In this document: piece after piece, positions 37,075-64,000 of the stretch
How positions within the stretch are numbered: the stretch's first letter is position 1
Layout of the letters: each line of letters starts with the position of its first letter
Origin: an uncultured Myxococcales bacterium
GTDB lineage: Bacteria > Myxococcota_A > Polyangia > Palsa-1104 > JAEUJZ01
Length of the DNA stretch: 64,000 nt
NCBI GenBank assembly: GCA_964554495.1
Contig: CAZKOY010000004.1
Location: 18,128 to 82,127, forward strand
Direction of reading: 5' to 3'
Translations under genes and position numbers: made by a program
Notes under the pieces: model-generated
Databases searched by the model: none
The model's input: the letters and a program-made list of their open reading frames with translations, nothing else
Told to the model about the DNA's origin: nothing

Positions 37075-40000
37075 ATGAATCCCCCGGTCCTGGCTGCAGG
37101 CACAGTGGAAGGCGAGCGCTTTGTTATCGAGCGCCTGGCGGGCAGCGGCGGCATGAGCTCGGTCTATCGCGCTCTCGATCGAAAGACAGATCGGCCGGTC
37201 GCCATCAAGTACCTCGCGCTGCGCACACAGCTACAGCAGGAAGCGGCGCGCTTCCTGCGCGAGATTCAGCTTCTTGCCGAGCTTTCGCATCCCGGCATCG
37301 TCGGCTATGTCCACCACGGGCAGTCCGCCGCGGGTCTGCCCTATCTGGTCATGGAATGGCTAGATGGCGAAGACCTGACCCGTCGGCTTTCGCGTGGCCC
37401 CTTGAGCGTCGCCGAGAGCGTGCGGCTGGCGCAGAAGGTCTGCGAGGCGCTGGAGCTTCTGCACAGTCGCGGCATCGTCCACCGCGATATCAAGCCGAGC
37501 AACCTGTTCCTGCGCGATGGCCTGATCGATCGCGTCACACTACTGGATCTGGGCGTTGCGCGACGAAGTGCGTCACACCGCACGATGACGCAGACCGGCA
37601 TCGTCATCGGCACGCCCGAGTACATGTCGCCCGAGCAGGCGCGTGGGCGTCGTGACATCGGGCCACCGGCCGACATCTTTTCCTTGGGCTGCGTGCTGCA
37701 CGAGTGCCTGACCGGCCGGCCGCCGTTTATGGGCGAGCATTTGTCGGCGCTGCTGTCGCGCATTTTGTTCGAAGATGCGCCGCGACTGAGCAGCGCGTGG
37801 CGCAATGTGTCGCCGCAGCTTGATGCACTGGTGCAGGCCATGCTGCGGCGCGAGCCGGATCAGCGACCGCAGAGTGCCGGTGTGCTTCTGGCTGAGCTCA
37901 ACAAGATCCCGATCGTCGACGACAGCCAGACGATGTCGCCACTGCCCAAGGCCATGACAGGCATCGGCGCTGACGAACAGCAGCTAGTCACGGTGGTCGT
38001 CGCAGCCGAGCCAGATCCACGCAGCGTGACCGGACCAAGCAGCATGCTGTCGGCCAGCGAGCTAGCAGAGGAACGCAGCGCGCTGCGGCTGCGCTTGGCG
38101 GACTTCGCGGCACCGATCGAGTGGCTGGCCGATGGCTCGCTGTGCGCCACGCTGAAGAATATCGGCAGCGCTGCCGATCAAGTGACCTTGGCGGCGCGCT
38201 TGGCGCTTGCCATTCGCGAGGCTTGGCCCAGCGCCATCATCGCCATGGCCACCGGTCGCAGCATCGTGCGCGAGCGCGTGCCCATCGGCGAGGCCATCGA
38301 TCGCGCCGTGGCCTCGCTGCGCCAGCAGCAGAACCGCGTGCTCGCCGCAGCCGCGGACCGCTCGTTGCTGGCGGCGGTGACGCGCGTTGTCTGGCTGGAC
38401 GCGCTGTCCGCTGATTTTCTTGAACAGCGCTTCACGCTAGAGACGCTCGCGGAAGGCCGTGGACTGCTTGCCGAGCCAGAGGACTTTGATGACCAGCGTC
38501 TGCTGCTTGGGCGCCCAACGACCTGCGTGGGACGCGAGCAAGACCTGGCCGTGTTGGAAATGGAGCTTGTGAATGTGCTGGAGCACCTGTCGCCTGCCGC
38601 GATGGTGATCACGGCGCCGGCCGGGTTTGGTAAGTCGCGCCTGCGGCATGAATTTCTGCGACGGCAGACCATGCGCGGGCAGGCTCTGGCCATGCTGATG
38701 GGGCGCGCCGATCCGCTGGCGGTGGGCACGCCGTATGCGCCGCTTTCGCGCGCTCTGCGGCAGGCCTGCGGCATTCATAGTGGGGACTCTCTGGCCGAGC
38801 AGCAGGAAAAAATCCGGCGACACATCGAGCAGCTGTTTTCGCTATCACCAAGTGCCGACAAGCCCCCGCCATCCGAGCCTTCGCTGGAAGCCCTGCCCGA
38901 GTTCCTGGGCGAGCTTATGGGAGTTCATTTTCCCGATGACGCCAGCGTAAAGCTGCGCGCGGCTCGCAGCGATCCCAAGGTCATGGGCGATCAAGTCAGC
39001 CAGGCCTTTCTGCGGTACCTGCAACAAGCCGCCGGGGTGGCTCCGCTGGTCTTTGTTCTGGAAGATCTGCACTGGGCAGACAGTCAGACGATCAAGCTGG
39101 TTGATCTGGCCTTGCGCGAGCTGAAGCAGCCGCTTTTCGTGCTAGCCATGGCGCGGCCCGAGATTCATACGCTGTACCCCAACCTGTGGGTCGGCCGCAT
39201 GCAAGAGCTCAAGCTGCCGGGGCTAAGCCGCCGCGCGGCCGAGCGCATGATTCGTCAGATGCTGGGTCCGCAGGCCACGCCGTCTTTGGTGACGCAGCTT
39301 GTAAACCAGGCCGATGGCAATGCGTTTTATCTGGAAGAGCTGATTCGCGCCGTCGCCACAGGTAAGCGAGACGCGCTGCCCGAGACGGTGCTGGCCATGC
39401 TGCAGGTGCGTCTGCAGTCCTTGGATATCACGTCGCGTCGTGTCCTGCGGTCGGCCAGCGTGTTTGGCGAGATCTTTTGGCGGACGGGGATCCGTGGGCT
39501 GCAGCCTGGCCAGCTTTCCGAGCCAGAGCTTGACCGAGCGCTTCGATCGCTGTGCGAAAGTGAGCTGATCGCGCAGCGGCCCGAGAGCCGCCTGCCCGGT
39601 GAGGACGAGTTTGCCTTCCGTCATGCACTGGTGCGCGAGGCCACATACGGCCTGCTTTCCGACGAAGATCGCGTGAATGCGCACAGCCTGGCCGCTGAGT
39701 ACCTAGAAAAAGCCGGCGAGCTCGATCCGATGGTCTTGGCGGAACACTTTCGCTTGGGGCACAGCCGCGAGCGAGCGCTGGCGCCGTATACGCGGGCCGC
39801 GATGCAGGCCCTTTCGGCCAACGATCTGCAGGCTACGCTGGCTCGCGTCGAGCTTGCCAAGCGCTGCGGAGCCAGCGGGGAAGCCTTGGGGACGCTAGAG
39901 GCGCTGGCCTGCACGGCGCACTTCTGGCGCGACGACTTTCAGTCGGCCTATCCGGCGGGCTGCCAAGCGCTGCTGCTTCTGCCGCGCGGCAGTCGGCTGT

Positions 40001-40893
40001 GGATGCAGTCCCTGGGCAACATGCTGACCTTCACGAGCCTTATGGGAAAGCAGGATCATTTTCGCAGCCTGATCGGCGAGTTCAGCACCGTCGTTCCAAG
40101 CGGCGACGGACTTGGGATGTATGTCGAGGCCGGCTCTCTTTTGATCAGCATGTTCAGCTTTGGTGGGATTCGCGATGCCGCGCAGGGCTTCTTGGGGTTG
40201 GTCGAAGCGGTGGGCCAGCCGTGTCTGAGTAGCGATCCCTTGGCGCGGGCGTGGTTCAAGCAAGCGCACGCCATTTTTTTGCTGATGCTGGGCAGCGATC
40301 CGGCTCGCGCGGTCACGCTGGCCAAAGAGGGGCTTGCCGCTGCACATGAAGCCGGAGCACGCCGCAACCAGGTGCTGATCAGCGCCTTTTTGGGCATGGC
40401 GCTTGAGCTTGCGAACGAATCCACCGTTGCAGAGAACGTGCTGCGCGAAAATCTAAGCCACGCGCAGCGCTTGGCTGAGCCGCTTTCCATCTCGCACGCT
40501 AAGGTGTGGCTGGCCATGGTGCTGCGCTGTCGGCGAGATCAGGCGGCGCAGCGCGAGGCGGCGAAGCTAGCCAGCGAGGTGCTCGCCACAAAAGGAGCCA
40601 ACGCGTTTTATGTCGTGGCCTGTCAGTGCGTGCTGGCCAGTGCTCGCCTTTTTGCCGGTGACTTGGCTGGGGCCGAAGCGGCTTTTGCGGCGGCAGCCCC
40701 CCTGCATTCGTTTCTGCCCATCTTGCACGGACTGGCCCTGTCGACGCAGCTTGCCGTCCTGCGGGCCGCTGGGCGCAGCGACGAAGCCAAGCACACCGCA
40801 GCGACGGCGCAAGCCCTCTTGGATCGTCTGAGCCCGCTTGGGCTCGCCGAACACGCCATGCGCAGTGAGCTTGCCGCGGTCGCCGCGGGCTAG
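37075..40893 (+). CDS. Ser/Thr kinase - AAA/STAND ATPase - TPR-like protein (PknK-type architecture)
   Basis: GSGGMSSVYRALDRKTDRPVAIKYL, HRDIKPSNLFL, DLGVA, GTPEYMSPE. Walker A in MVITAPAGFGKSRL. LVFVLEDLHWAD is Walker B-like. A long helical-repeat C-terminus follows. Confidence 0.85.
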   Translation: MNPPVLAAGTVEGERFVIERLAGSGGMSSVYRALDRKTDRPVAIKYLALRTQLQQEAARFLREIQLLAELSHPGIVGYVHHGQSAAGLPYLVMEWLDGEDLTRRLSRGPLSVAESVRLAQKVCEALELLHSRGIVHRDIKPSNLFLRDGLIDRVTLLDLGVARRSASHRTMTQTGIVIGTPEYMSPEQARGRRDIGPPADIFSLGCVLHECLTGRPPFMGEHLSALLSRILFEDAPRLSSAWRNVSPQLDALVQAMLRREPDQRPQSAGVLLAELNKIPIVDDSQTMSPLPKAMTGIGADEQQLVTVVVAAEPDPRSVTGPSSMLSASELAEERSALRLRLADFAAPIEWLADGSLCATLKNIGSAADQVTLAARLALAIREAWPSAIIAMATGRSIVRERVPIGEAIDRAVASLRQQQNRVLAAAADRSLLAAVTRVVWLDALSADFLEQRFTLETLAEGRGLLAEPEDFDDQRLLLGRPTTCVGREQDLAVLEMELVNVLEHLSPAAMVITAPAGFGKSRLRHEFLRRQTMRGQALAMLMGRADPLAVGTPYAPLSRALRQACGIHSGDSLAEQQEKIRRHIEQLFSLSPSADKPPPSEPSLEALPEFLGELMGVHFPDDASVKLRAARSDPKVMGDQVSQAFLRYLQQAAGVAPLVFVLEDLHWADSQTIKLVDLALRELKQPLFVLAMARPEIHTLYPNLWVGRMQELKLPGLSRRAAERMIRQMLGPQATPSLVTQLVNQADGNAFYLEELIRAVATGKRDALPETVLAMLQVRLQSLDITSRRVLRSASVFGEIFWRTGIRGLQPGQLSEPELDRALRSLCESELIAQRPESRLPGEDEFAFRHALVREATYGLLSDEDRVNAHSLAAEYLEKAGELDPMVLAEHFRLGHSRERALAPYTRAAMQALSANDLQATLARVELAKRCGASGEALGTLEALACTAHFWRDDFQSAYPAGCQALLLLPRGSRLWMQSLGNMLTFTSLMGKQDHFRSLIGEFSTVVPSGDGLGMYVEAGSLLISMFSFGGIRDAAQGFLGLVEAVGQPCLSSDPLARAWFKQAHAIFLLMLGSDPARAVTLAKEGLAAAHEAGARRNQVLISAFLGMALELANESTVAENVLRENLSHAQRLAEPLSISHAKVWLAMVLRCRRDQAAQREAAKLASEVLATKGANAFYVVACQCVLASARLFAGDLAGAEAAFAAAAPLHSFLPILHGLALSTQLAVLRAAGRSDEAKHTAATAQALLDRLSPLGLAEHAMRSELAAVAAG

Positions 40894-51865: not shown

Positions 51866-54800
51866 CTACGAAGCCCAGACGTCCTGCAGGTAACGACCTT
51901 CGCTCTTCCAGCCTTCCAGGACGGCATCGGCATCGGCAAGCGAGCAGCCACGGGCCTTGGCAACAAGCTGCGCCAGCGTGTGCTGCACATCGGTCGCCAT
52001 CTTGCGCGCATCCCCACAGACATAGATGGCCGCGCCCTGGTCCAAAAGCGCCAGCACTCGGTCGGCGTGCTGCCGCAGCAGATCCTGCACGTACATGCGA
52101 GGGTGATCGGGCTGGCGCGAAAACGCGATGTATAGCTGATCCAGCGAGCCGTCTTTCAGGTGCTGCTCTAGCTCATAGCGATAGATGAAGTCGTGATCGG
52201 GGCGACGGCAGCCGAAGAACAGCACGGTCTTGCCGACGTTTTCGCCGGCCTGCCGCTGTGCCGCGCGTTCCTGGATGAAGCCGCGCATGGGCGCCAGGCC
52301 TGTACCCGGCCCAATCAGCAAGACCGGTGTCTTGGCGTCGACGGGCAAACGGAAGGTCGAGCGCGTGTCCTTGACCAGCATGCGAATCTGCGAGCCGGCT
52401 GGGCAGTGCAAAAGATAGTGACTGCACAGGCCTTCGCGGCGCGCCTCGTGCGGGCCGTTGAAGTTGTGTACACCGACGGTAATGCTGCAGGCGCGAGCGA
52501 GCATGCGCGGCGATGACGAGATCGAGTAGTAGCGCGGCTTGAGCAAGGGCCGCAGCGACAAGAGCAGCGGCAGCGGGCAGTGTACCGACGCAAAGCGCAG
52601 CAGCACATCGAGCAGCGTCAGCTTCTGGCCCAGCACATCGCGGCCAAAGGTGGCTTCCGATGCCAGATCCAAAAGCTGCTTCTGTTCGGGCGGGCAGGGG
52701 CAGCCTTCGGCGAGTGCGCGCAGCTCTTTGCGCGACAGCGGACCGCTGAGATCGATGTGATAGGTCAAAAGGTCGTGGACGGTGATCGGCACGCCGGTTG
52801 GCAGGTGTGCCGAGTCCCCCACGCTCGTTGGATGCAGCGGCGAGACCTCATGCAGCACGACGACATCTGAGCTGCGTACGCCACAGCGAGCCGCAACGGC
52901 TGCCACTAGATCGTGTGGATTTTCGGGAAAGACGCCCAGGTGATCACCCGCTGCGTACGTGACACCTTCGGGCAGCTCGATCTCGATGTGTCGCGTCGAG
53001 CGATCGGACAGGCTGGACTGCAGCTCTTCGTTGCGCAGGATGACGCCCAGGCGAGCTTCGTCTTGCAGTGGGAATTTGTTGGGCAGGACCGCACGGGCCT
53101 GCGTGCCTGCGAAGTTCACGACCTCGACGGAATACAAAAGCGGGCTGGTCTCGGGCGCTGGTGGCGGTGGGCTGCCAGCGGAAAAGATCGTCGGCACCGT
53201 GCGGAAAAGCTGCTGCTGCCAGGCGTCGGCTGCCGCTTCGAGATCGCCGTCGGCATCGCAGCTTCCAAGCGGCATAAATGGCGTCGCTCCCAGCGCACAC
53301 AGACGAGCATGCACGTGCTTGGGAAACTTCTGAAAGGTGGTGCGCCACTGCTTGTTGCCGCAGCCCAGCACCGCATACTGCAGCCCCTGCAAGGGACTGC
53401 CCGCGAGCGTGAGATCCGAGATCAGTGCGGCAAACTTCTGCGCGTTGTCCGGTGGTGTTCCGTTGTACGTGCTGCTGACGATGACCAGGGGCGCTGCGCC
53501 GATCTTGGCCAGGGCATCCAGCGAAGAAAAGGCGTCTAGATCCGCGAGCACAGGCGCAAACCCGCGAGCCGTTGCTTGTCGCGCAATGCCCTGGGCCAGA
53601 TCCTGACAGGTGCCCATGTTCGATCCGTACAAGACATAGAAAGGCGGGCCGCTGGTCGTCCTTCCAGTCTGCGTATCGACGGGAGCGTCGCGCTGTTCCG
53701 GCGTGGGGAAGGCGCCTTTTTCTTCGCCGCGCGGCTCTAGGAAGAGCTGCAGATCTTTGGGCTTGATGGTCAGCGTCTGGACATGGACCAGCTGATAGTT
53801 GGGGTCGTGCAGCCGCGGCCGATAGCGCTGATACAAAAGCGCAAGGACCAAGCGCGCTTCCAACAGCGCGAACTGAAAGCCGATGCAGCTACGCATGCCC
53901 AGGCCGAAGGGATGATAGACATTGGGGTGCCGCGCAGCGACGGAGTCGGGTAAGAATCGATCGGGATCAAAGCGCTCGGCATCGGGGCCCCAGTGCTGCG
54001 GATGACGATGCAGTGCGGTCAGCAGCGTGACGACGCGCTGGCCTTTGCTGACCGGATACATTCCCGCCAGCATGGTGTCGCGATCGACGACTTTGTTGAA
54101 CGCAGGCGCCGTCGGATATAGCCGCAGCGTCTCTTTCAGCACGCGCCCGACATAGTCCAGGCGTTCGATGTCCTGGTACGTCGGGCGATAGCTGAAGTCA
54201 CGGCCCAGTACACGATCGACCTCGGCACACAGCGCGGCTTCGATCTGCGGGTGACGGCTGATCAGATACAGCGCATAGGACAGAAGGCCGCTTGTGGTCT
54301 CGTGGCCAGCGATGAGGAACGTGATCAGCTGATGGCGAATGTTTTCGTCGGGCAGACGCTTGCCGGTCATGCGATCGCGCGCCGTCAACATCGTCTGCAA
54401 GATGTCGTTGGGCACAGGCTCGCCGCGCTCAAGGGCCTGCTTGCGCTCGGCGATGATGCGATCGACCGTGCCGGCAAGGACGGTGTTGGCGCGCTCGCGG
54501 CGGTGCGCGGCCAGTGGATGAAACGATGCAGGCAGCACGGTCATCGGGGCCTGCATGGCGTCGCGCAGCACTTCGACCATGGCGTCGACAAACGGGATGG
54601 CTTCGTTGCTTTCCAGGCAGTGAAAGCGAGTATTAAAGCCGGTATAGGCGATGGTCTCGAACGTCATGCGCGTCATCAGATCCGTCGCTAAGAACGGCTC
54701 GGATGCACGCAAGCGGCCAAGCTGGGCCAGCAGCACATCGGCGATCTCAAGCATCTTGGGGTAGTACTGCTTGAGCGCGCTGGTTCCCATGGTGGGCAGC

Positions 54801-55393
54801 AAGATGCGGTGCGCGACGTGCCAGATCTCTTCGTCGTCTTCCGCAGTGAACAGGCCATCGCCGACGCTGTATGTGCGCAGGTGCGAAAGCGGAGAACGAT
54901 CGCCGATCGTGCGCTTGGGAAAGTCCTGGGGCCGCGACAGCATGTCCTTGATGACTTCGGGATCGCGCGTCAGGTACACGGTGCGCCCCGGTAGCTTCAG
55001 CACGACGAAGTCGCCGAACTTGTGCAAGAGCTCTTCAGCGGCTGCGAGGAAGTTGCCGCGGCGCAGGTCGGCGAGATTGCCAATGATCGGCAGCGGTCGT
55101 GGTCCTGGAATGGTCGCTGTGGCAGCGGCAGCGGGCTCGCTGGACTTGTCGGTAGGACGGGTCAGCTCGACGGAAAGAAGCAGCCCGTCCGGCAAGCTAT
55201 CGGACAGCGCCACGACATCGCCATCGGCATCGCGGCAGAGGACGCGGCCCCCTTCAGGGAGCGTCTGTCCCAGCGCGCTCAGAATGGCGCGCTCAATCGA
55301 TTCGGCACTGCTGCCGGGATAAAACGCAACGCGCAGCGGCGCAGCCGACATCGCACTGGCCATGCGCACCTGGATGCTCTTCTTGGTGCTCAT
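51866..55393 (-). CDS. Self-sufficient cytochrome P450 - NADPH-P450 reductase fusion (CYP102/P450-BM3-like) with ~95-aa N-terminal extra domain
   Basis: Haem loop FGLGMRSCIGFQFA. Flavodoxin-like FYVLYGSNMGTCQDLA. FAD motif RYYSISSSP. NADPH motif LIGPGTGLAPMRGF. The P450 fold starts near IPGPRPLPIIGNL, after about 95 residues. Confidence 0.9.
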   Translation of the reverse strand: MSTKKSIQVRMASAMSAAPLRVAFYPGSSAESIERAILSALGQTLPEGGRVLCRDADGDVVALSDSLPDGLLLSVELTRPTDKSSEPAAAATATIPGPRPLPIIGNLADLRRGNFLAAAEELLHKFGDFVVLKLPGRTVYLTRDPEVIKDMLSRPQDFPKRTIGDRSPLSHLRTYSVGDGLFTAEDDEEIWHVAHRILLPTMGTSALKQYYPKMLEIADVLLAQLGRLRASEPFLATDLMTRMTFETIAYTGFNTRFHCLESNEAIPFVDAMVEVLRDAMQAPMTVLPASFHPLAAHRRERANTVLAGTVDRIIAERKQALERGEPVPNDILQTMLTARDRMTGKRLPDENIRHQLITFLIAGHETTSGLLSYALYLISRHPQIEAALCAEVDRVLGRDFSYRPTYQDIERLDYVGRVLKETLRLYPTAPAFNKVVDRDTMLAGMYPVSKGQRVVTLLTALHRHPQHWGPDAERFDPDRFLPDSVAARHPNVYHPFGLGMRSCIGFQFALLEARLVLALLYQRYRPRLHDPNYQLVHVQTLTIKPKDLQLFLEPRGEEKGAFPTPEQRDAPVDTQTGRTTSGPPFYVLYGSNMGTCQDLAQGIARQATARGFAPVLADLDAFSSLDALAKIGAAPLVIVSSTYNGTPPDNAQKFAALISDLTLAGSPLQGLQYAVLGCGNKQWRTTFQKFPKHVHARLCALGATPFMPLGSCDADGDLEAAADAWQQQLFRTVPTIFSAGSPPPPAPETSPLLYSVEVVNFAGTQARAVLPNKFPLQDEARLGVILRNEELQSSLSDRSTRHIEIELPEGVTYAAGDHLGVFPENPHDLVAAVAARCGVRSSDVVVLHEVSPLHPTSVGDSAHLPTGVPITVHDLLTYHIDLSGPLSRKELRALAEGCPCPPEQKQLLDLASEATFGRDVLGQKLTLLDVLLRFASVHCPLPLLLSLRPLLKPRYYSISSSPRMLARACSITVGVHNFNGPHEARREGLCSHYLLHCPAGSQIRMLVKDTRSTFRLPVDAKTPVLLIGPGTGLAPMRGFIQERAAQRQAGENVGKTVLFFGCRRPDHDFIYRYELEQHLKDGSLDQLYIAFSRQPDHPRMYVQDLLRQHADRVLALLDQGAAIYVCGDARKMATDVQHTLAQLVAKARGCSLADADAVLEGWKSEGRYLQDVWAS

Positions 55394-55455: not shown

Positions 55456-56493
55456 CTACCGAATGGTGAAACCGATCGACGTGACGACCGTGTGCAGCCA
55501 GTTGTTGGTATAACCGTCGCCCGGCGGTGGATCGTCCTGGCTGAAGCCCTGCGCGCCCCCGCCGAGATAGCGCAGGTTGAGGAAGGTCTCCATAAAACTC
55601 GTAAGCGACAACCCGATGCGCAGCGATGCGTCGAGGATCGCGCCTTCGAACTCGTACAAGCTGCCGGTGATGATGCGACCGCGCGCATACAGACCGTCGA
55701 TCTCGGTGCCGATGAACAGGCCGTTTTTGAACGTGGTGCGAGCGCGCAGATGCAAAAGCGGTACGACGCCGATGTCGTTGTTTACGCGACGCAGCGCGCC
55801 GTCCGCCGACGTGAACGAGATGGCCGCGTTGCGGATCTGCAGACCGACGCCGATGGCTAGCTCGTGCCGGCGACTGCGGAAGAAGTCGAACTGATAGTTG
55901 AAGCGATAGAAGTCAAAGCCATAGCGGAAGTTGACCGGCGTGCCGCTGGGAAAGTCCAGCTGATCGACGCGCAGATCGCGGGCCAGGACTTGTTCGGTTC
56001 GCAGGTCGATGGGCTGGTACAGAAAGATCAGCGTGTGGCGACGGAACAACTCGACTTCGGCCGAGATGCGCGCGAAGAAGAACAGGTTGTTCTGGCCACC
56101 TTCGTTGATGTAGTCGATCTCGGATCCGTCCTGGCTGAACTGGATGGTGTGCTTGGCCACACCGACGGTGCCAAGCTCAAGATTCAAGCGCAGGGCGACG
56201 TTGCGTGCGGGGTTGTTGATGCGAAACGCGGTCGGCAGGATGACCGGCAGATCATCTGCAGCGCTGGGCGGCGCAGGCCAGGCTACAGAGGGTGTGTAGG
56301 CTTCTGGCGAGGTCGCTATCTGCAGTGGCTGCTGTGCGTTTGCAGCGGCGGGCTGCCACGCGCAGCAGGCAAAGCAGAGGAACGCGAGGGCCGAAGGATG
56401 GAAGGAACGAACGAAGGAAGAAAGGAACGAAGAAAATCGGGGTCGCGCTGCGTGCATGCCTGTTAGTTGCCGGCCACCACGCAAGCGCGCCAA
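55456..56493 (-). CDS. Hypothetical outer-membrane beta-barrel protein
   Basis: Signal peptide ...LAFLCFACCAWQPAAANA. Alternating hydrophobic pattern throughout, many aromatic-x-aromatic strands. Alternative start at MHAARP (56457). Confidence 0.55.
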   Translation of the reverse strand: MARLRGGRQLTGMHAARPRFSSFLSSFVRSFHPSALAFLCFACCAWQPAAANAQQPLQIATSPEAYTPSVAWPAPPSAADDLPVILPTAFRINNPARNVALRLNLELGTVGVAKHTIQFSQDGSEIDYINEGGQNNLFFFARISAEVELFRRHTLIFLYQPIDLRTEQVLARDLRVDQLDFPSGTPVNFRYGFDFYRFNYQFDFFRSRRHELAIGVGLQIRNAAISFTSADGALRRVNNDIGVVPLLHLRARTTFKNGLFIGTEIDGLYARGRIITGSLYEFEGAILDASLRIGLSLTSFMETFLNLRYLGGGAQGFSQDDPPPGDGYTNNWLHTVVTSIGFTIR

Positions 56494-56509: not shown

Positions 56510-57415
<906 letters not shown>

Positions 57416-57455: not shown

Positions 57456-57471
57456 AGCAATGGGCATGCCA
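57456..57471 (-). promoter_or_regulatory. Sigma-54 (-24/-12) promoter candidate upstream of the MBL / OM barrel / P450 genes
   Basis: The minus strand reads cgTGGCATGCCCATTGCTgt. The GG and GC dinucleotides sit at the canonical spacing of TGGCACG-N4-TTGCW, with the -12 element about 40 nt upstream of ATG 57415. Confidence 0.5.
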
Positions 57472-57560: not shown

Positions 57561-57600
57561 TCATGTTTCACATGGTTTCACGATGTTTCACATGTTTCAT
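57561..57600. repeat. Four tandem, helically phased ~10-bp repeats (core GTTTCA / TGAAAC)
   Basis: tcatGTTTCAc atgGTTTCAc gatGTTTCAc atGTTTCAt. Cores at 57565, 57575, 57585 and 57594, giving spacings of 10, 10 and 9 bp. The array sits 8 nt past the pseudokinase stop and about 100-130 bp upstream of the sigma-54 motif. Confidence 0.8.
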
Positions 57601-57607
57601 CCGGCCT

Positions 57608-60607
57608 CTAGGCTGCGCGGTGCGGTGCGGAAGGTGGCGCGGGCAGATAGCTGGCGAGCGCGCTGTACAGCTCCGCGCTGCTTGGGCGCTGCACCGGTTC
57701 GCGGTGCAGGCAGGCGGACAGCAGCGAGACCAGCGTGGCGTCTAGGCCTGGGAGCGTCGACAGGCGGGCAGCGCTGCCCTGTGGCGTCGGCGGTGCGGTC
57801 TCGGCTGCTGCGACCTCGGCTTGGCTGCGCTCGCTGGCCAAGAGCTCAAGCGCCAGCAAGCCGAAGCCGAACACATCCGACTGCGGCGTTGCGGCATGCA
57901 GGCCAGTGGCTAGCTCGGGGGCGCGATAGCGGCGAATCACGCTTGCCTCGTCAGCGCTTTCGGCCAGGACTTCGTCCGCGTGGATGGCGGCTTGCGCCGC
58001 GGTCGAGGTCAAGTCAGCGAGCTCGGGATGGCCGCCTGCTGCCACGGATGCGAGGCCCAAGTCGACTAGCTGCACGCGGTAGGGCGCGCCATCGACGCTG
58101 ACTTGTACGCTCTGTGGCTGCAGGTTGCGATGGACGATGCCGTGTTGATGCAGCACACGCAGCCCGGCCGCCAGCTGAGCGATGATGCACAAGGCCGCAT
58201 CAAGCGTGCGCGGCAGACCGAGCAGGTGGCGCAGCGAGCGGCTAGGGCGCCGCTCGCAGATCAGAAAAGTGGTGCCATCCGGCGCTTGATCGATATCGAC
58301 GATGCTGTCGAGGTATGGATCGCGAAGGACGGTGAGCAGCTTGGCTTCGCGCGCGAAGCGAGCAAGCAGGGCAGGGTGGGCGGCGTTCGACACCACCTTG
58401 GCGACAAAGCGCTTTTGATCGGAGCTGCGCTGCACTTGGTACAGCTGATAGCCGCCGTGAACTTCAAGCTGCGTCATCACGCGATAGCTGCGCCCCAAAG
58501 GGGCTCCCGGTGGCAGCGTCGGCGCGTCGCGTGAGCCGGCGGTGCTATCACTGCGCTGCGCTTCGTCCTGCGCAACATCGGACAAGCTGCCGTGCTGACT
58601 GACCTGCAGCAGCCTCCTGCCTAGCTGGTGGCGCAGATCGCTGTTTAGCTGCTGCTCGGCGGCATGGCTTTCTTGCAGCTCCCGCAGCTTGGCCAAAAGA
58701 TCGCGTCGCATGTCTTCGATGGCGCGGGCCAAGGCGGCGTGCTCGTGGCCCTCGTCGATAGGAACGGGGGTCTGAAGCTCGCCCTTCGCCAGGCGGGCTG
58801 CTGCGGCCAGCAGGCTGCGCTGCTCATCAAGCTTGCGCTTGGTATGCATGCTCTGTTCTTCCAAGTCATCGGCGCGCTGGGCCGTCAAGGTCAGCGCGAC
58901 TTGGTTTCCGAGCTCGATCAAGATTTCGAGATCTTCGTTCTGAAATTCGCGGCGACTGGCGGACGCTTCCAGGTACACGACACCCAGCAAGCGACCTTGG
59001 ACCAGAAGCGGGGCCGCCATCACGCTCTGGGTTTGGGTCTGGGTTTGGGATGAAGATGCTTCGTGGCTGCGACGAAGACGCTGACGCATGGCCGGTCGGC
59101 GCTTCTTTTCAACGGCATCTAGCGTGACTGGATCGCAGCCCGCCGTGGCACTGGCGGGATCCTTCAGCTGACCTTGGGCAGTGCGTGCCGCAAGCACGCG
59201 CAGGCCGCCCGTCGACTCATCGCATAGAAACAGGACGGCGCGCTCGGCCTGCAGAAGTCGCTGCAGGGCCTGCAGCGTGCTGTCCGCGTGCTCTCGACTG
59301 CCACTGTGCTGCGTCGATGACAGGCTGGTTCCCAGGACGGCAGAGTAGTTACCCAGGCGCTGCAAGAACGCGCGATAGCGACGGACCAAGATCGTGCCCA
59401 TGGCACCGATGAAGACGATGCCGGTGAGTGCGCGCACATCGAATTCCATGCGCAGGATATGCAGCGCGACCAGCACCTGCGGCACGGCGAGCAAGCTGGT
59501 GCCCAGCAGACCCAAGGCGAGGATGCGCGCATCGGCGTTGCCACGCAAAAGGCCATGGATCGCCGCGCCATAGATGGCCACTGAAAAGGGCAGCCAGAAC
59601 AGAAGCGAGGCTTTAAGAAACAGCTCCAGGTGAATGACGCCGGTCAGCGTGCCCAGCATGCCGAGGAAAAACAAAAGCGCATTGGCCACGCCCATCCCGC
59701 GCATGAAGCGCGACCAGCCGTCGTCGAAGAGCTGCGCGATGAAGGCGCACATCGACGCGCTGATCAGGCAGAACGAAGCCACCAAGATCAGGCGCCATAG
59801 TGCCGGGTGATCGAATAGATATGCCCGCGCCTGCGAGCGACTCAGCAGATAAGCGCCGATGCTCAGGCACTGCACGGCGTACAAAAGGTACAAGCGCTCG
59901 CGACGCTGCAGCAGAAACAGGCCCAGCACGCCTGCGCCCAGCACCAAGGCAATCAGGCCGACAATCAGAAACGGCAACCCTTTGTGGATGGCGTCTGCAA
60001 ACAGCTCGGCACGTCCGCCCCAAAGTGGCGGCCGGATCAGCCCGATGTCGGAATAGACCGATCGCAGGTGCAGGGTCAGCAGCTTGCCCGTTGGCTGTGA
60101 GCCCAAGGGCAGATAGATGGGGCGCTTGGCAATGAAGCGCTGTGCATCGCCTTGCATCGGGCCGAAGCGCATGATGCGCTCGCCATCGAGAAATGCTTCG
60201 AGGCACTGATCGACTTCGTGCAAGAACAGCGTAGGGTCGACGGCCGCCGGTCCGCTGAGCCAGGTGCGCAGCCATAGATCGGCGCGGCCGCTGCGGCCTG
60301 GTGGGTTGTGCAGGCGCTGCGTGTTCTGCCAGGCGGCGCTGGGTGCTGCATCGCGCGACCAGGCCTGGCTTCCGTCGGGAAGTACGGGTGATTCGCCATA
60401 CCGATACTGCCAAGCACCAACATAGGTCGCGATGCCTTGGGTCACGGGGACATCGCTGCTGAGCTCTGCGCTGCGACAGCTCGTCAAGGCCAAGACCAGC
60501 AAGCTGCAAAGTGTCGCAAGCGCGCGACAAGACCTCGCACCATGGGCAGCACGGAAGCGATGCTGACCGGCCCACACCTGCGCGGCTGCATGGCTCATGC
60601 GGCTCAT
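57608..60607 (-). CDS. 7TMR-DISM-type sensor - GAF - HAMP-like - Hanks-fold PSEUDOkinase (paralogue 2)
   Basis: Lipobox-like LVLALTSC. WQYRYGESP...PPGRSGRADLWLRT...LEAFLDGERIMRFG. About 7 TM helices. GAF-like region. RLAKGELQTPVPIDEGHEHAALARAIEDMRRDL. In the kinase fold, HRNLQPQS replaces HRDLKPxN, DLG replaces DFG, and the Gly loop is degenerate. Confidence 0.85.
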   Translation of the reverse strand: MSRMSHAAAQVWAGQHRFRAAHGARSCRALATLCSLLVLALTSCRSAELSSDVPVTQGIATYVGAWQYRYGESPVLPDGSQAWSRDAAPSAAWQNTQRLHNPPGRSGRADLWLRTWLSGPAAVDPTLFLHEVDQCLEAFLDGERIMRFGPMQGDAQRFIAKRPIYLPLGSQPTGKLLTLHLRSVYSDIGLIRPPLWGGRAELFADAIHKGLPFLIVGLIALVLGAGVLGLFLLQRRERLYLLYAVQCLSIGAYLLSRSQARAYLFDHPALWRLILVASFCLISASMCAFIAQLFDDGWSRFMRGMGVANALLFFLGMLGTLTGVIHLELFLKASLLFWLPFSVAIYGAAIHGLLRGNADARILALGLLGTSLLAVPQVLVALHILRMEFDVRALTGIVFIGAMGTILVRRYRAFLQRLGNYSAVLGTSLSSTQHSGSREHADSTLQALQRLLQAERAVLFLCDESTGGLRVLAARTAQGQLKDPASATAGCDPVTLDAVEKKRRPAMRQRLRRSHEASSSQTQTQTQSVMAAPLLVQGRLLGVVYLEASASRREFQNEDLEILIELGNQVALTLTAQRADDLEEQSMHTKRKLDEQRSLLAAAARLAKGELQTPVPIDEGHEHAALARAIEDMRRDLLAKLRELQESHAAEQQLNSDLRHQLGRRLLQVSQHGSLSDVAQDEAQRSDSTAGSRDAPTLPPGAPLGRSYRVMTQLEVHGGYQLYQVQRSSDQKRFVAKVVSNAAHPALLARFAREAKLLTVLRDPYLDSIVDIDQAPDGTTFLICERRPSRSLRHLLGLPRTLDAALCIIAQLAAGLRVLHQHGIVHRNLQPQSVQVSVDGAPYRVQLVDLGLASVAAGGHPELADLTSTAAQAAIHADEVLAESADEASVIRRYRAPELATGLHAATPQSDVFGFGLLALELLASERSQAEVAAAETAPPTPQGSAARLSTLPGLDATLVSLLSACLHREPVQRPSSAELYSALASYLPAPPSAPHRAA

Positions 60608-63486
60608 GAGGCGTGGTCTCCTGCAGGCTCTTTCGCGAGGCTGTCATCATGGGTTGCCCAGGTCGCAAGCGCGCTGGATAGCTCGTCGGCGCTGGGGCGC
60701 TGCACGGCATCTTCTGCCAAGCAGCGGCTGATCAGTGCTGACAAAGAACTGGGCAGATCGCCGCGCAGGGACTGCACAGACCGAAGCTGCAGCACCTCAC
60801 CGCGATAGCGACTGACAACCGGAGGCCGAGAAAAAGGCAGGACACCAGTCAAGAGCTCATAGGCGATGACGCCCAGGCTAAAGATGTCCGAGGGCGGCTG
60901 TGCGAGGTGCGAGCCAACGTATAGCTCAGGCGCCAAGTACATCGGCGAACCGACGAGCAGACCGGGCTGCTCGCGGGCTTCGCGCGCCACCGCTTCCTGC
61001 TGGCTCAAGGTCGAAAGGCCAAAGTCGACAAGCTTGGCTTGTGGTTCGCCATCGACTTGCGCCACCAAGACATTGGCGGGCTTCAGGTCGCGGTGGACGA
61101 CGCCGTGGGCATGTACGGTGCGCAGGCCGCTTGCGATCTGCGAAAGCACGCGACAGGCACCCCGCACATCGCGATAGCGATCCATGCACTGACTGAGCGG
61201 CGTGCCTGGGACCCGTTCCATCACCAAGAACAGCAGGCGCGTATCCGTCAGATCGACATCGACGATGGCCGCAACATGTGGATCGCTCAGCCGCGCCAGG
61301 ATCTGCGCTTCGCGAGCGAACTGCAGGATGGCTTCCTTCTGGGCCTTGGCCGAGATCACCTTGGCCGCGAGCCGACGACCGTCGCGCAGGCGCTCGACGT
61401 CATAGACACTGCCGCTGGCCCCTTGGCCCAGCACGCCGACCACGCGGTAGCCATCGCCAAGAAGCTCGCCGGCTTCTAGCCACTGACTGCGCTGCAGCGG
61501 ATTGCTGCCGCTGCCTAGCGCCTGATCCAAGAGCCGCTGAATGCGCTGCTCGATCTGAAAGCGCAGCTCTTCGTTGAGCTTCTGCGCTGCCACGCGGCTG
61601 CTCGTAAGCTCGGCCATCTTGGCGGCTAGATCGCGGCGCATACCGTCGAGAAGACCGGCCAGCGCGCTGAGCTGACTTTCCGTCGGCACCGTGATCGGAG
61701 ACTGCAGATCACCACGCGCCAGGCGGCCGACCTGCTGCAAGAGCTGCTGCTGTTCGTTGAGCAAGCGCTGTGCGTGCTGTGTCTGCTGTTCCAGCGTGCT
61801 GGTCCGCGCGCCCAGCAAGTGCAGCGCGATCTGCCGACTGAGTCCCTGCACCAACACGCGCTCGCTGTGGCCGATTCCGACGACGCTGTCGTGCAGGTAC
61901 AGCACACCCAGCAGCTGATCGTGGACTAGAAGCGGCACTGCAAGCTCGCTGAAGCGCATGCCGAGATCAGCGGCCACCCGCGCCCCCAGCGAGTCATCGG
62001 CCACACGCTGCTCGGCGGTCACCTGACGCGTCGCAAGAGCACGGCGAGCTGGCGCAGGGATCGACGGATTTTCTTCGCCATCGACCGCAGACAAGTCACC
62101 GCGCGCATCGCGAGCGGCCAAGAGCTTCACGGCATTTCCATCGTCATCGCAGACAAACAGCAGCGCTCGCTCGGCCTGCAGCATGCGCAGAAGCTCGGCC
62201 AGCACGCGGTGGGCATGCTGGCGCGGGGACAGCGAGCGCGCCGATTCGAAGTTGAGCTGCATCAGCGCCGAATAGTCGGCTAGCTGACGCTGCGCGCGAC
62301 GCACGCGATGCGACAAGATCACGCCCAGCGTAAGCGCGAACAGCGCCGCCGGATAATGACCCAAAAAGCCGGTGCGCGGCAGCACCCGCATCTCTTGCAA
62401 GACCTGCCACGTGGCAAAGGCCGCCGCGATGAGCAGGCCCACGCTGAGCATGCGGCCATAAAGCTCGCCGCGCAGGGTGCTGGCCAGGGTCTTGCCGATC
62501 ACCAGCAGCATGAACAGCAAGAACAAATACTTCAGAACTTCAGACGTGTTGACGATGTGAACGCGTCCGCTGATCACCAAGAAGCTGGCGAACGCAAAGT
62601 ACAAAAGGAAGATGGCGGCCAAGGCCGGCAGCAAGTTGAATCGGTCTTGGCCCAACATGCGCGCCACGAACAGCGACAAGAACCCGCCTGAAAAGCACAG
62701 GCTGCTTAGCTCGACGTAGTACCAGACGACCGCGGCGGATATGAAATAGGAACGGATGGTCGAGCGGCACAAGACATACACGCCCAAGCTCAGTAAGCAC
62801 AGGCCGTACAGAAGCAGGTCGGTCTCGCTGCGCTGCACGAGAAACAGCGACAACAAGGCCAAGCCGGCGGTCAAGAGCAGCACTCCGATCAGCGCGGGAC
62901 CCAGGCCTTCTTGCACCACGGCCGATAGCACATGCGTGTACTCGCCCAGGTGTTGTGGCGTCGGGAACCCGATGCGGGCATGCGGCGAGTACACACGGAT
63001 CACCAGAAGACGGCCGGCTACCCGTTCGGGCAGGGGCAGAAAGTGGTTCTGAAAGCCAGGAAAGCCGCGCGCCGTCGGCCCATCGAGCACGCCGAAGCGC
63101 TCGATCATCTGCCCATCGAGGAACGCCTCGAAGCTCTGCTCGACGAAGTCAAGCTGCAGGACTAGGCGCGATGTGCCCCATGGATCCGCGGCAAGGGGCG
63201 GCAAGCGCGTGCGCAGCCACAGATACGCTTGGCCGCTTCGGCCGGGCGGGTTGTGCGTCTGCTGCGTCGGGCGCCAGCTTGCGCTGGGATCGCTGTGGGC
63301 TTCGTCGGGCAGCGACCACAAAAAGCGACCGTCGGGCGAAAGCGGCGATTCGCCATAGCGATATTCCCAAGTGCCAGGGTACGAGCGCATGCGCTCTGGA
63401 GGAGGGCGCTCTGGTCCGTCGACCGGGGCGCTGCAGCCCATGGCAAGCAGCAGGCCCAGGATGATCAGCACAGCGACAGAGCGCAT
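60604..63486 (-). CDS. 7TMR-DISM-type sensor - GAF - HAMP-like - Hanks Ser/Thr kinase (paralogue 1, catalytic motifs intact)
   Basis: Lipobox LLLAMGC. WEYRYGESP...PPGRSGQAYLWLRT...FEAFLDGQMIERFG. Seven hydrophobic helices. GAF-like LLFVCDDDGN...VPLLVHDQLLGVLYLHD. RLARGDLQSPITVPTESQLSALAGLLDGMRRDL. Kinase motifs GQGASGSVY, AAK, HRDLKPANVLV, DFGLS, SPMYLAPE. Confidence 0.85.
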   Translation of the reverse strand: MRSVAVLIILGLLLAMGCSAPVDGPERPPPERMRSYPGTWEYRYGESPLSPDGRFLWSLPDEAHSDPSASWRPTQQTHNPPGRSGQAYLWLRTRLPPLAADPWGTSRLVLQLDFVEQSFEAFLDGQMIERFGVLDGPTARGFPGFQNHFLPLPERVAGRLLVIRVYSPHARIGFPTPQHLGEYTHVLSAVVQEGLGPALIGVLLLTAGLALLSLFLVQRSETDLLLYGLCLLSLGVYVLCRSTIRSYFISAAVVWYYVELSSLCFSGGFLSLFVARMLGQDRFNLLPALAAIFLLYFAFASFLVISGRVHIVNTSEVLKYLFLLFMLLVIGKTLASTLRGELYGRMLSVGLLIAAAFATWQVLQEMRVLPRTGFLGHYPAALFALTLGVILSHRVRRAQRQLADYSALMQLNFESARSLSPRQHAHRVLAELLRMLQAERALLFVCDDDGNAVKLLAARDARGDLSAVDGEENPSIPAPARRALATRQVTAEQRVADDSLGARVAADLGMRFSELAVPLLVHDQLLGVLYLHDSVVGIGHSERVLVQGLSRQIALHLLGARTSTLEQQTQHAQRLLNEQQQLLQQVGRLARGDLQSPITVPTESQLSALAGLLDGMRRDLAAKMAELTSSRVAAQKLNEELRFQIEQRIQRLLDQALGSGSNPLQRSQWLEAGELLGDGYRVVGVLGQGASGSVYDVERLRDGRRLAAKVISAKAQKEAILQFAREAQILARLSDPHVAAIVDVDLTDTRLLFLVMERVPGTPLSQCMDRYRDVRGACRVLSQIASGLRTVHAHGVVHRDLKPANVLVAQVDGEPQAKLVDFGLSTLSQQEAVAREAREQPGLLVGSPMYLAPELYVGSHLAQPPSDIFSLGVIAYELLTGVLPFSRPPVVSRYRGEVLQLRSVQSLRGDLPSSLSALISRCLAEDAVQRPSADELSSALATWATHDDSLAKEPAGDHAS

Positions 63487-63492
63487 TCCCGC

Positions 63493-64000
63493 TCAATGTA
63501 TCACGTTCGACGGGCGGGCTGGTGGCTGGGCCGGCGCTTCCCTCACCACATCCAGAAGCGCTGTGTCGGTCGACCACGTGCCCATGGCAACAGGTACGAA
63601 CTGACTGCGCAGCCGGCCACCACTTAGCGCCTCCAATAAGAGATCGCCCAGTGGATGCTGGCTGGCGCGCTGTCGCAGCGAGTCGCCGCGCGATGCCAAG
63701 TCTGCGGCCCGCAGCGTGCTCGCGTCTTGCACCAGTGCGCTGAAGTCGGTCGGCTCCAGCATCGCAATCGCCTTTAATGTCCAGCCGCCAAGCGGTGCCT
63801 CGGACTCAAAGACATACGGCAGAGCGATCAGGCATGGCTTCGCATCCGCGGCAATGCGGGCATCGCCGGGTCGATCTGCTCGTGGAAACAGGATGCCAAT
63901 GCGTCCATCCGGCCCCAGCTCCAGAACCGTCAAGTACACCGCCCCCGGTGACTCGTTGGTGACCTCGATCTGATACAGCTCGCGCTCGCGGAGCCGCAGG
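63493..64000 (-). CDS. DUF4384-like domain protein, C-terminal part (N-terminus beyond the right edge)
   Basis: The frame is open to the window edge (...LRLRERELYQIEVTNESPGAVYLTVLELGPDGRIGILFPR...), matching the DUF4384 pattern. It ends 6 nt before the kinase start. Confidence 0.6.
   Translation of the reverse strand, partial: LRLRERELYQIEVTNESPGAVYLTVLELGPDGRIGILFPRADRPGDARIAADAKPCLIALPYVFESEAPLGGWTLKAIAMLEPTDFSALVQDASTLRAADLASRGDSLRQRASQHPLGDLLLEALSGGRLRSQFVPVAMGTWSTDTALLDVVREAPAQPPARPSNVIH

Follow-up and report, generated by a model that had tools for sequence, protein, structure and literature searches.

The best understood role of eukaryotic pseudokinases is that of partners to active paralogs within receptor complexes. 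In bacteria, pseudokinases have been cataloged only recently. The 2025 atlas of bacterial serine/threonine kinases (STKs) recognizes seven pseudokinase families (ActPs1-3, GLW, CP1, DYD, and DLHK; e.g., the MviN pseudokinase domain), in each of which some or all members carry a substitution of the VAIK lysine; it assigns a membrane segment on the N-terminal side of the kinase to only one of its 42 families and mentions no architecture with a seven-transmembrane (7TM) region, a GAF domain or a HAMP domain. A review of pseudokinases describes the bacterial ones as almost unstudied experimentally, and it mentions GAF only for CP1 pseudokinases, as an accessory domain, without a 7TM region or a paired active paralog. 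The literature that we searched contained no report joining the 7TMR-DISM sensor with a Pkinase domain. Here we describe a locus with this combination in a 64,000-nucleotide stretch of DNA from an uncultured Myxococcales bacterium (assembly GCA_964554495.1, contig CAZKOY010000004.1, positions 18,128 to 82,127; hereafter, the window), which encodes two adjacent and paralogous receptors, K1, with a canonical Hanks kinase domain, and K2, with a degenerate one. A preliminary description of this DNA had proposed a translationally coupled pair of receptor kinases, one active and one a pseudokinase, behind a DUF4384 gene. With a probability that we put at roughly 0.55, K1 and K2 represent an ancient, co-inherited pair of inner-membrane receptors that would work in one complex, with K2 as a non-catalytic co-receptor.

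Both open reading frames (ORFs) were found on the minus strand where the preliminary description had placed them (Table 1), and they overlap as it had proposed: within the junction sequence tcATGAgc, the K2 ATG (60607-60605) shares bases with the K1 TGA (60606-60604). A gap of 6 nt separates the end of the upstream ORF from the K1 ATG, as had also been reported, and every codon and motif quoted at that stage was exact on re-reading of the sequence. That the two proteins are paralogous along their whole length was borne out by BLASTP (34% identity across 984 columns, full length, E 5e-143). They share a common order of parts, namely a lipobox signal, a beta-sandwich ectodomain, a 7TMR-DISM 7TM bundle, a GAF domain, a HAMP-like hairpin, a coiled coil and a Hanks kinase domain.

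The kinase domains of both proteins score above the Pfam Pkinase cut-off of 31.7 bits, K1 at 154.8 bits and K2 at 63.6 bits. K1 has the motifs GQGASGSV, AAKV, FAREAQIL, HRDLKPAN, DFG, and GSPMYLAPE, and all eight of its ortholog clusters are likewise canonical in our motif table, which agrees with the earlier claim that the upstream copy keeps every catalytic signature; judged by these motifs, K1 is catalytically competent. In K2, the codons at 58109-58132 (cat cgc aac ctg cag cca cag agc) encode HRNLQPQS, so that the aspartate of the HRD motif is replaced by asparagine, the lysine of the loop by glutamine and its asparagine by serine. The Gly loop of K2 is degenerate (LEVHGGYQL), DLG is encoded at 58055-58063, and the P+1 loop reads RRYRAPE as compared to GSPMYLAPE in K1, while VAKV and APE are present. 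The activation loop of K2 contains an insert bearing a conserved DL[TA]S motif. The modeled kinase fold of K2 is closest to those of M. tuberculosis PknA/PknB (TM score 0.77). A pseudokinase is taken here as a kinase fold without at least one of the beta3 lysine, the HRD aspartate and the DFG aspartate, and K2, having lost the HRD aspartate and kept the lysine and the DFG aspartate, is a pseudokinase by this usual sequence definition, as the preliminary description had called it on the basis of HRNLQPQS, DLG and the degenerate Gly loop.

Table 1. Positions of the K1/K2 receptor genes, their domains and associated features (window coordinates unless another locus is named).
Feature	Position	Strand	Evidence or remark
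K1, 960 aa, receptor Hanks kinase, all catalytic motifs canonical	60604-63486	minus	ORF list, Pfam, motifs
K2, 999 aa, paralogous receptor with predicted pseudokinase output	57608-60607	minus	ORF list, Pfam, BLASTP
ATGA overlap, K1 stop/K2 start	60604-60607	minus	read from sequence
K1 signal peptide and lipobox (LLAMG-C18)	63433-63486	minus	hydropathy
K1 extracytoplasmic beta-sandwich, motif WEYRYGESP	62902-63432	minus	AF2 model, Foldseek
K1 seven-helix transmembrane bundle (7TMR-DISM_7TM)	62287-62901	minus	Pfam, hydropathy, AF2
K1 GAF domain	61816-62229	minus	Pfam, 44 bits
K1 HAMP-like helical hairpin and coiled coil	61492-61794	minus	Pfam below cut-off, family-level matches
K1 kinase domain	60652-61449	minus	Pfam Pkinase, residues 680-936
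K2 N-terminal extension and signal peptide with lipobox (LALTS-C44)	60476-60607	minus	hydropathy
K2 extracytoplasmic beta-sandwich, motif WQYRYGESP	59975-60475	minus	AF2 model of full-length K2
K2 seven-helix transmembrane bundle	59315-59974	minus	Pfam, 35 bits; AF2 helices spanning 199-431
K2 GAF domain	58886-59299	minus	Pfam, 55 bits
K2 HAMP-like hairpin and coiled coil	58556-58864	minus	Pfam, 22.8 bits; AF2 helices 557-607, 624-671
K2 predicted pseudokinase domain	57638-58486	minus	AF2 fold, substituted catalytic residues
K3 genes between K1 and K2	L002:7899-9995; L003:3852-6008		also L018, L042
Four TGAAAC[AC] repeats, candidate activator-binding site	57564-57599	minus	9-10 nt spacing, directly after K2 stop
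Predicted sigma-54 type -24/-12 promoter, TGGCATGCCCATTGCT	57456-57471	minus	41 nt before the ATG of the next gene
Downstream gene, 301-aa metallo-beta-lactamase-fold protein, persulfide-dioxygenase-like	56510-57415	minus	Pfam, NCBIfam
3' end of a 756-aa Peptidase_C14 (caspase)-DUF4384 gene	63493-64000	minus	full gene in L009

Ortholog searches covering 5.8 billion proteins identified eight clusters for K1 (54-95% identity) and nine for K2 (50-100% identity). The HRD aspartate is missing from nine of nine K2 clusters, with asparagine, cysteine, serine, or glycine in its stead (HR[NCSG]L[QR]P), and the lysine of the catalytic loop is glutamine or arginine in all of them. The Gly loop is degenerate in every K2 ortholog, and in most of them the asparagine of the catalytic loop and the P+1 loop are lost. 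All K2 orthologs keep the alphaC glutamate, the DFG aspartate, APE, and the arginine of subdomain XI, and the beta3 lysine is kept in eight of the nine clusters. As distant K2 orthologs have DFG, some of them together with the loop asparagine, and near ones have DLG, the degeneration was stepwise.

We estimated ratios of nonsynonymous to synonymous substitution rates (dN/dS) by the method of Nei and Gojobori, comparing the window with orthologs that are 95% (K1) and 93% (K2) identical, at a dS of ~0.2. The ratio for the K1 kinase domain is 0.08-0.11 (0.08 vs. the closest relative) and that for the K2 pseudokinase domain is three times as high, 0.24-0.30 (0.24 vs. the closest relative). For K2 as a whole it is 0.15, falling to 0.04 in the ectodomain (vs. 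the 93% identical ortholog) and to 0.01 in the 7TM bundle. K2 is under purifying selection, which is strongest in its sensor half. Taken with the motifs of its orthologs, this indicates that the loss of the HRD aspartate is conserved under purifying selection and that K2 is not a pseudogene.

All of the homologous loci derive from metagenome-assembled genomes (MAGs) of uncultured Polyangia/Myxococcales. K2 follows K1 in every informative contig and there is none with only one of the two. The 4-nt overlap is present in five lineages: the window with L009 (the same locus, 99.7% identical to the window), L005/L006, L001, L007/L008, and L041. For L005 (GCA_016794505.1), identity to the window is 95/93% for K1/K2, and for the three others it is 77/73, 76/71, and 68/62%. 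From the conservation of this overlap in five lineages we predict that K1 and K2 are translationally coupled. In a neighbor-joining tree, K1 orthologs and K2 orthologs fall into separate, monophyletic clades whose topologies mirror each other, and therefore the duplication is old and the two genes have co-diverged. The preliminary description had reckoned with a recent local duplication and a decaying copy, should the genes not be conserved together in related genomes; conservation, dN/dS, and tree all point instead to a co-conserved and co-oriented pair.

In deeper lineages (~55/51% identity to K1/K2), a gene for a further kinase, K3, lies between K1 and K2, which do not overlap there; this K1-K3-K2 order is found in L002, L003, and the MAG AMR_MDS_0893. 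K3 consists of a canonical N-terminal Hanks kinase domain, a Pro/Ala-rich linker, one transmembrane helix, and a periplasmic tail of ~140 residues. Kinases resembling K3 also flank other members of the receptor family (L014, L039, and L040), and a close K3 ortholog was not found in the 64-kb window. A second tandem is encoded at L039:1289-8844, where the gene for a canonical 981-aa receptor kinase is followed by that for a degenerate receptor, P0016, and then by that for a K3-like kinase. P0016 has HRDLQPKN, and NAG in place of DFG, and so lacks the DFG aspartate and the loop lysine. Pairing of an active with a degenerate receptor apparently arose twice independently, in the K2 lineage and in the P0016 lineage, which suggests that a degenerate copy is tolerated specifically beside an active paralog.

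The window contains two further Hanks kinase genes, one on the plus strand (37075-40893) for a 1272-aa protein with Pkinase and AAA_16 domains, and one on the minus strand (19625-21331) for a 568-aa kinase, consistent with the kinase-rich nature of Myxococcota genomes.

Both receptors begin with lipobox-type signals, as had been noted, and the lipobox cysteine is invariant in all aligned members (Cys18 of K1 in 10 of 10 K1/K2 orthologs, Cys44 of K2 in 27 of 27 family members); lipidation is predicted. The seven hydrophobic helices that had been likened to 7TMR-DISM were supported by three lines of evidence. The Pfam model 7TMR-DISM_7TM (cut-off 29 bits) matched K1 at 33.1 bits and K2 at 35.3 bits, as well as 33 of 33 family members; hydropathy indicated a signal peptide plus seven helices; and an AlphaFold (AF2) model of K1 residues 1-410 (predicted local distance difference test score, pLDDT, 86; predicted TM score 0.82) has a beta-sandwich at residues 40-182 followed by seven long helices. 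The corresponding model of full-length K2 (pLDDT 78) comprises a beta-sandwich, the 7TM region, a GAF domain, a helix-loop-helix, a long helix, and a bilobal kinase fold. The GAF domain of both proteins, described earlier as GAF-like, was identified above the Pfam cut-off of 22.4 bits (K1, 44.1 bits; K2, 54.6 bits), and the family profile matches the GAF-A domain of PDE6C among PDB sequences (E 2.5e-5). The HAMP matches of K1 (16.3 bits) and K2 (22.8 bits, E 1e-4) are both under the Pfam cut-off of 25 bits, but HAMP is matched by 20 of 33 relatives with a best E of 2e-7, and the family profile matches the Af1503 HAMP domain (E 0.002, PDB sequences). Its placement after the GAF domain is atypical, as compared to a position directly after the membrane.

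The ectodomain had been described as 7TMR-DISMED2-like, an assignment that held for the class of fold and failed for the Pfam family. Neither K1 nor K2 has a Pfam match to 7TMR-DISMED2 at E<0.1, the DISMED models are not among the leading Pfam families of the 33 relatives, and a profile search of PDB sequences returned only the GAF and HAMP matches and not the RetS ectodomain; we rejected identification as Pfam 7TMR-DISMED2 on these grounds. Of the domains for which profile searches had initially been suggested, Pkinase, GAF, and 7TMR-DISM_7TM thus scored above cut-off and 7TMR-DISMED2 was left unmatched. Foldseek matched the modeled K1 ectodomain to the sugar-binding jelly roll at the N terminus of GH2 enzymes (E 2e-5), and RetS was not among its best 50 matches. 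As modeled, the K1/K2 ectodomain folds as a galactose-binding-like jelly roll, a class to which DISMED2 is also reported to belong.

A profile of the ectodomain and 7TM bundle, searched against 1.84 billion representatives, identified 10,267 proteins at E<1e-3, 747 of which reached E<1e-30. Hanks kinase domains, nearly all canonical, occur on ~44 of the best 150 representatives. A sample of 57 from the remainder, which includes one kinase-bearing outlier added deliberately (P0165), contained 22 histidine kinases, 18 SpoIIE/PP2C proteins, seven GGDEF proteins, six cyclases, two methyl-accepting chemotaxis proteins, and two sigma-54 activators; the relatives of the sensor in KSB1 and Bacillota are histidine kinases. 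As the sensor is fused to so many of the classical outputs, we consider it a bona fide 7TMR-DISM type with an ectodomain outside the Pfam models. The domain assignments accordingly identify the Hanks kinase as one further output of 7TMR-DISM sensors, concentrated in Polyangia. The ectodomain motif, WxYR[YW]GDSP (K1 residues 36-48, window ~63343-63381), is seen in representatives P0135-P0275 and marks a family with thousands of representatives that current Pfam models miss. The outlier P0165 (1151 aa) has a kinase-like domain with no recognizable HRD and with NFG for DFG, and may represent a third pseudokinase lineage.

Downstream of K2, four repeats and a sigma-54 type element precede a gene for a persulfide-dioxygenase-like protein (Table 1). 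The element is the only sigma-54 type match (TGGCAC-N5-TTGCW) in the 64-kb window, where 0.13 are expected, and an intergenic alignment showed TGGCAY-N5-TTGCT to be invariant at this position in all K1/K2 loci. The repeats are situated ~95-130 nt upstream of it and, like the element, recur after K2 in all of these loci; both direct and inverted copies of TGAAAC[AC] are conserved in L001, L002, L005, and L007. Repeats and element are arranged like an activator site upstream of a sigma-54 promoter, and promoter function is predicted. The 301-aa protein matches Lactamase_B at 88 bits (Pfam) and, at 333 bits, the dioxygenase half of the sulfurtransferase/persulfide dioxygenase Blh (NCBIfam), and its gene follows K2 in all loci whose sequence reaches that far. 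The putative sigma-54 promoter and the dioxygenase-like gene are the only neighbors conserved in all lineages.

Further downstream on the minus strand, a 1175-aa fusion of P450, flavodoxin, and FAD/NAD reductase similar to P450 BM3 (51866-55393) is conserved two genes downstream of K2 in several lineages. The ORF between it and the metallo-beta-lactamase-fold gene (55456-56493, minus strand) is of variable length, 182-345 aa across the loci, and had no Pfam or NCBIfam match. In a related MAG, a gene for an FHA-sigma-54 activator overlaps that of a K3-like kinase (L030:366-3163, minus strand); the two are divergent from a sigma-54 promoter at L030:3391 (plus strand) and lie ~5 kb from a gene for a GAF-less 7TMR-DISM-HAMP-kinase receptor. 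A scan of the 64-kb window against Rfam gave no RNA family match.

The preliminary description had also placed a DUF4384 gene in an operon with the pair and suggested a survey for conserved triplets of DUF4384, kinase, and pseudokinase genes, and here our results differ from it. In the upstream ORF, which the window truncates, the DUF4384 match is 21 bits and under the Pfam cut-off of 27 bits; the full gene in L009 encodes a Peptidase_C14 protein with a weak C-terminal DUF4384 match and is preceded by one for a TPR-CHAT protein (both within L009:1-4180). Upstream of K1 in the loci of all other lineages, caspase and CHAT genes are absent and the gene differs by lineage, being an unknown gene on the opposite strand, LysR, GT87, or YdjM, so the triplet is not conserved. 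Nucleotide similarity to the relatives ends 48 nt before the K1 ATG, at window position 63534, and the caspase ORF extends into what was the K1 leader and ends there at a TGA created by a single C-to-G difference. We rejected the caspase-DUF4384 gene as part of the module, as it lies upstream of K1 in this genome only.

Since HAMP/coiled-coil modules function as parallel dimers, and since K1 and K2 have been kept adjacent and in this sub-lineage are predicted to be translationally coupled, the two receptors most likely act in one complex. In the mechanism that we propose, K2 would serve as a ligand-sensing, non-catalytic co-receptor in a complex shared with K1, and may regulate K1, act as a scaffold, or be phosphorylated by K1; in the deeper lineages, the bitopic kinase K3 encoded between the two would also take part. 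With less assurance, we suggest that an enhancer-binding protein for sigma-54, encoded elsewhere, may receive the phospho-signal and might then bind the TGAAACA repeats and switch on the predicted sigma-54 promoter of the persulfide-dioxygenase-like gene. A more specific version, in which K1 and K2 are a heteromeric receptor, K2 still senses ligand and switches K1 allosterically in a manner similar to HER2/HER3 but of independent evolutionary origin, such an arrangement has arisen at least twice in this family, and a phospho-dependent sigma-54 activator provides the read-out at the TGAAACA-repeat promoter of the dioxygenase-like gene, is tentative, and we are inclined to doubt that it will hold in all of these respects.

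Several observations count against a single complex with a non-catalytic K2 and a sigma-54 read-out. K2 retains the beta3 lysine, the alphaC glutamate, and the DFG aspartate, residues with which a residual or unconventional activity is possible. The coiled-coil residues that are invariant in the family (the LN..LR motif) suit homodimers as well as heterodimers. As K3 separates K1 and K2 in the deeper lineages, their predicted translational coupling is derived and not ancestral, and scans for terminators and sigma-70 promoters between the genes produced nothing above the shuffled background and no confident call. With respect to the promoter, neither the window nor the K1/K2 loci contain a gene for an enhancer-binding protein (GAFTGA motif), and the adjacency on which the link to the receptors is based is conserved within a single bacterial order, where inherited synteny could be enough to account for it.

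The most serious of the alternatives, although we think it rather unlikely, is that K1 and K2 are independent homodimeric receptors for different ligands whose adjacency reflects co-regulation only; K2 would then signal without catalysis, e.g., by serving K3 or other kinases as scaffold or decoy, or by accepting a phosphoryl group itself. Ectodomains that are only ~33% identical and each under purifying selection would be expected of two such receptors, the coiled-coil core residues common to both clades are compatible with homodimers, K3 separates the genes in the deeper lineages, and other members of the family are single receptors beside K3-like kinases. Co-regulation by itself accounts less readily for the strict co-occurrence and order of the genes in every informative contig over 50-100% identity, for a 4-nt overlap that has been kept in five lineages, and for the existence of an independent second tandem of canonical and degenerate receptors in L039.

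It is also conceivable, but improbable, that K2 has retained an enzymatic function, be it as a weak or unconventional protein kinase or as a kinase-fold protein with some other nucleotide-dependent activity. Unconventional kinase activity has been reported for some eukaryotic pseudokinases, and K2, with a normal predicted bilobal kinase fold, keeps the beta3 lysine (in eight of nine clusters), the alphaC glutamate, the DFG aspartate, and APE. Yet the replacement of the catalytic aspartate varies (N, C, S, or G) with no conserved substitute catalytic residue evident, the loop lysine is glutamine or arginine and the loop asparagine mostly lost, degeneration extends to the Gly-rich loop and the P+1 substrate loop, and the domain has a dN/dS threefold that of its counterpart in K1. 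That K2 is a decaying duplicate of K1 from a recent local tandem duplication, as adjacent paralogs with lost catalytic residues might suggest, is scarcely credible for an intact ORF of 999 codons that is only 34% identical to K1, belongs to a separate clade as old as that of K1, has a dN/dS of 0.15 overall and 0.01-0.04 in the sensor half, and shares its degenerate motifs across nine ortholog clusters. We consider it equally far-fetched that the locus is an anti-phage defense system composed of the kinases and the neighboring caspase and CHAT proteases, since the defense kinases that are the best PADLOC/NCBIfam matches (mad6, PD-T4-6) are matched over the generic kinase domain only and far under the family cut-offs (MAD6, 174 vs. 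460 bits), the caspase-like and CHAT genes upstream in this genome are absent from every other K1/K2 locus, and the genes conserved beside the pair encode a housekeeping-type dioxygenase and a P450.

The main limitation of these findings is that the host organisms are uncultured; the pair is confined to their lineage. Within that scope, K1/K2 would provide a clean bacterial case in which an active and a dead receptor are always encoded together, in which the selection data mark the dead copy as functional, and for which there is a probable independent repeat in a second lineage and a candidate transcriptional read-out next door. The 7TMR-DISM class of sensors would feed serine/threonine phosphorylation in addition to its classical outputs.

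Among described systems, the 7TMR-DISM receptors (RetS/LadS and NicD of Pseudomonas, RgsP of Sinorhizobium) resemble K1 and K2 in the 7TM bundle, the N-terminal beta-sandwich, and the modular outputs. K1 and K2 differ from them in that the output is a Hanks serine/threonine kinase, that GAF and HAMP-like domains are inserted between membrane and output, that the ectodomain is unmatched by the Pfam DISMED models, and that the lipobox cysteine is invariant. RetS, whose action is largely non-catalytic and consists in binding the kinase GacS, is a functional analog of the role proposed for K2. With the PknB-type Hanks kinases, K1 shares all of the catalytic signatures and K2 its closest fold (PknA/PknB); the topology of K1 and K2 is reversed, with the sensor and membrane region N-terminal and the kinase C-terminal, and there are seven helices as opposed to one. 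K2 is similar to the pseudokinase families of the atlas in the lineage-conserved loss of catalytic residues from a Hanks fold, but it keeps the VAIK-type lysine and the DFG aspartate and loses the HRD aspartate, and it is a 7TM receptor always encoded beside an active full-length paralog. Assignment of K2 to ActPs1-3, GLW, or DLHK was rejected, as the lysine is substituted in all members of those families and K2 retains it.

FHA-domain enhancer-binding proteins and serine/threonine kinase cascades are established in Myxococcus (Jelsbak 2005; Nariya & Inouye 2006; both as cited in PMC4320627). Similar to these cascades (Pkn8/Pkn14-MrpC and the FHA activators), the K1/K2 locus has clustered Hanks kinases (K1, K3, and K2) and an adjoining putative sigma-54 promoter with repeats, and the FHA-sigma-54 activator beside a K3-like kinase in a related MAG is a further trait of this kind. 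It differs in that the locus is without an activator gene and that its hosts are uncultured Polyangia.

The eukaryotic receptor pairs (EGFR/HER2 with HER3, and the kinase and pseudokinase co-receptors of plants) have the same layout of a sensor outside, a membrane region, and a kinase inside, and their partners are likewise paralogs, one of which is without the catalytic base. In HER3, as in K2, asparagine takes the place of the HRD aspartate. Differing from those pairs, K1 and K2 have an independent origin within a bacterial family and combine seven helices with a putative HAMP/coiled-coil dimer module in place of single-pass, ligand-induced dimerization. The architecture of K1 and K2 shows that bacteria can build the eukaryote-like arrangement of an outside sensor and a C-terminal kinase, and the pair may be what corresponds in bacteria to the receptor pairs of kinase and pseudokinase found in animals and plants.

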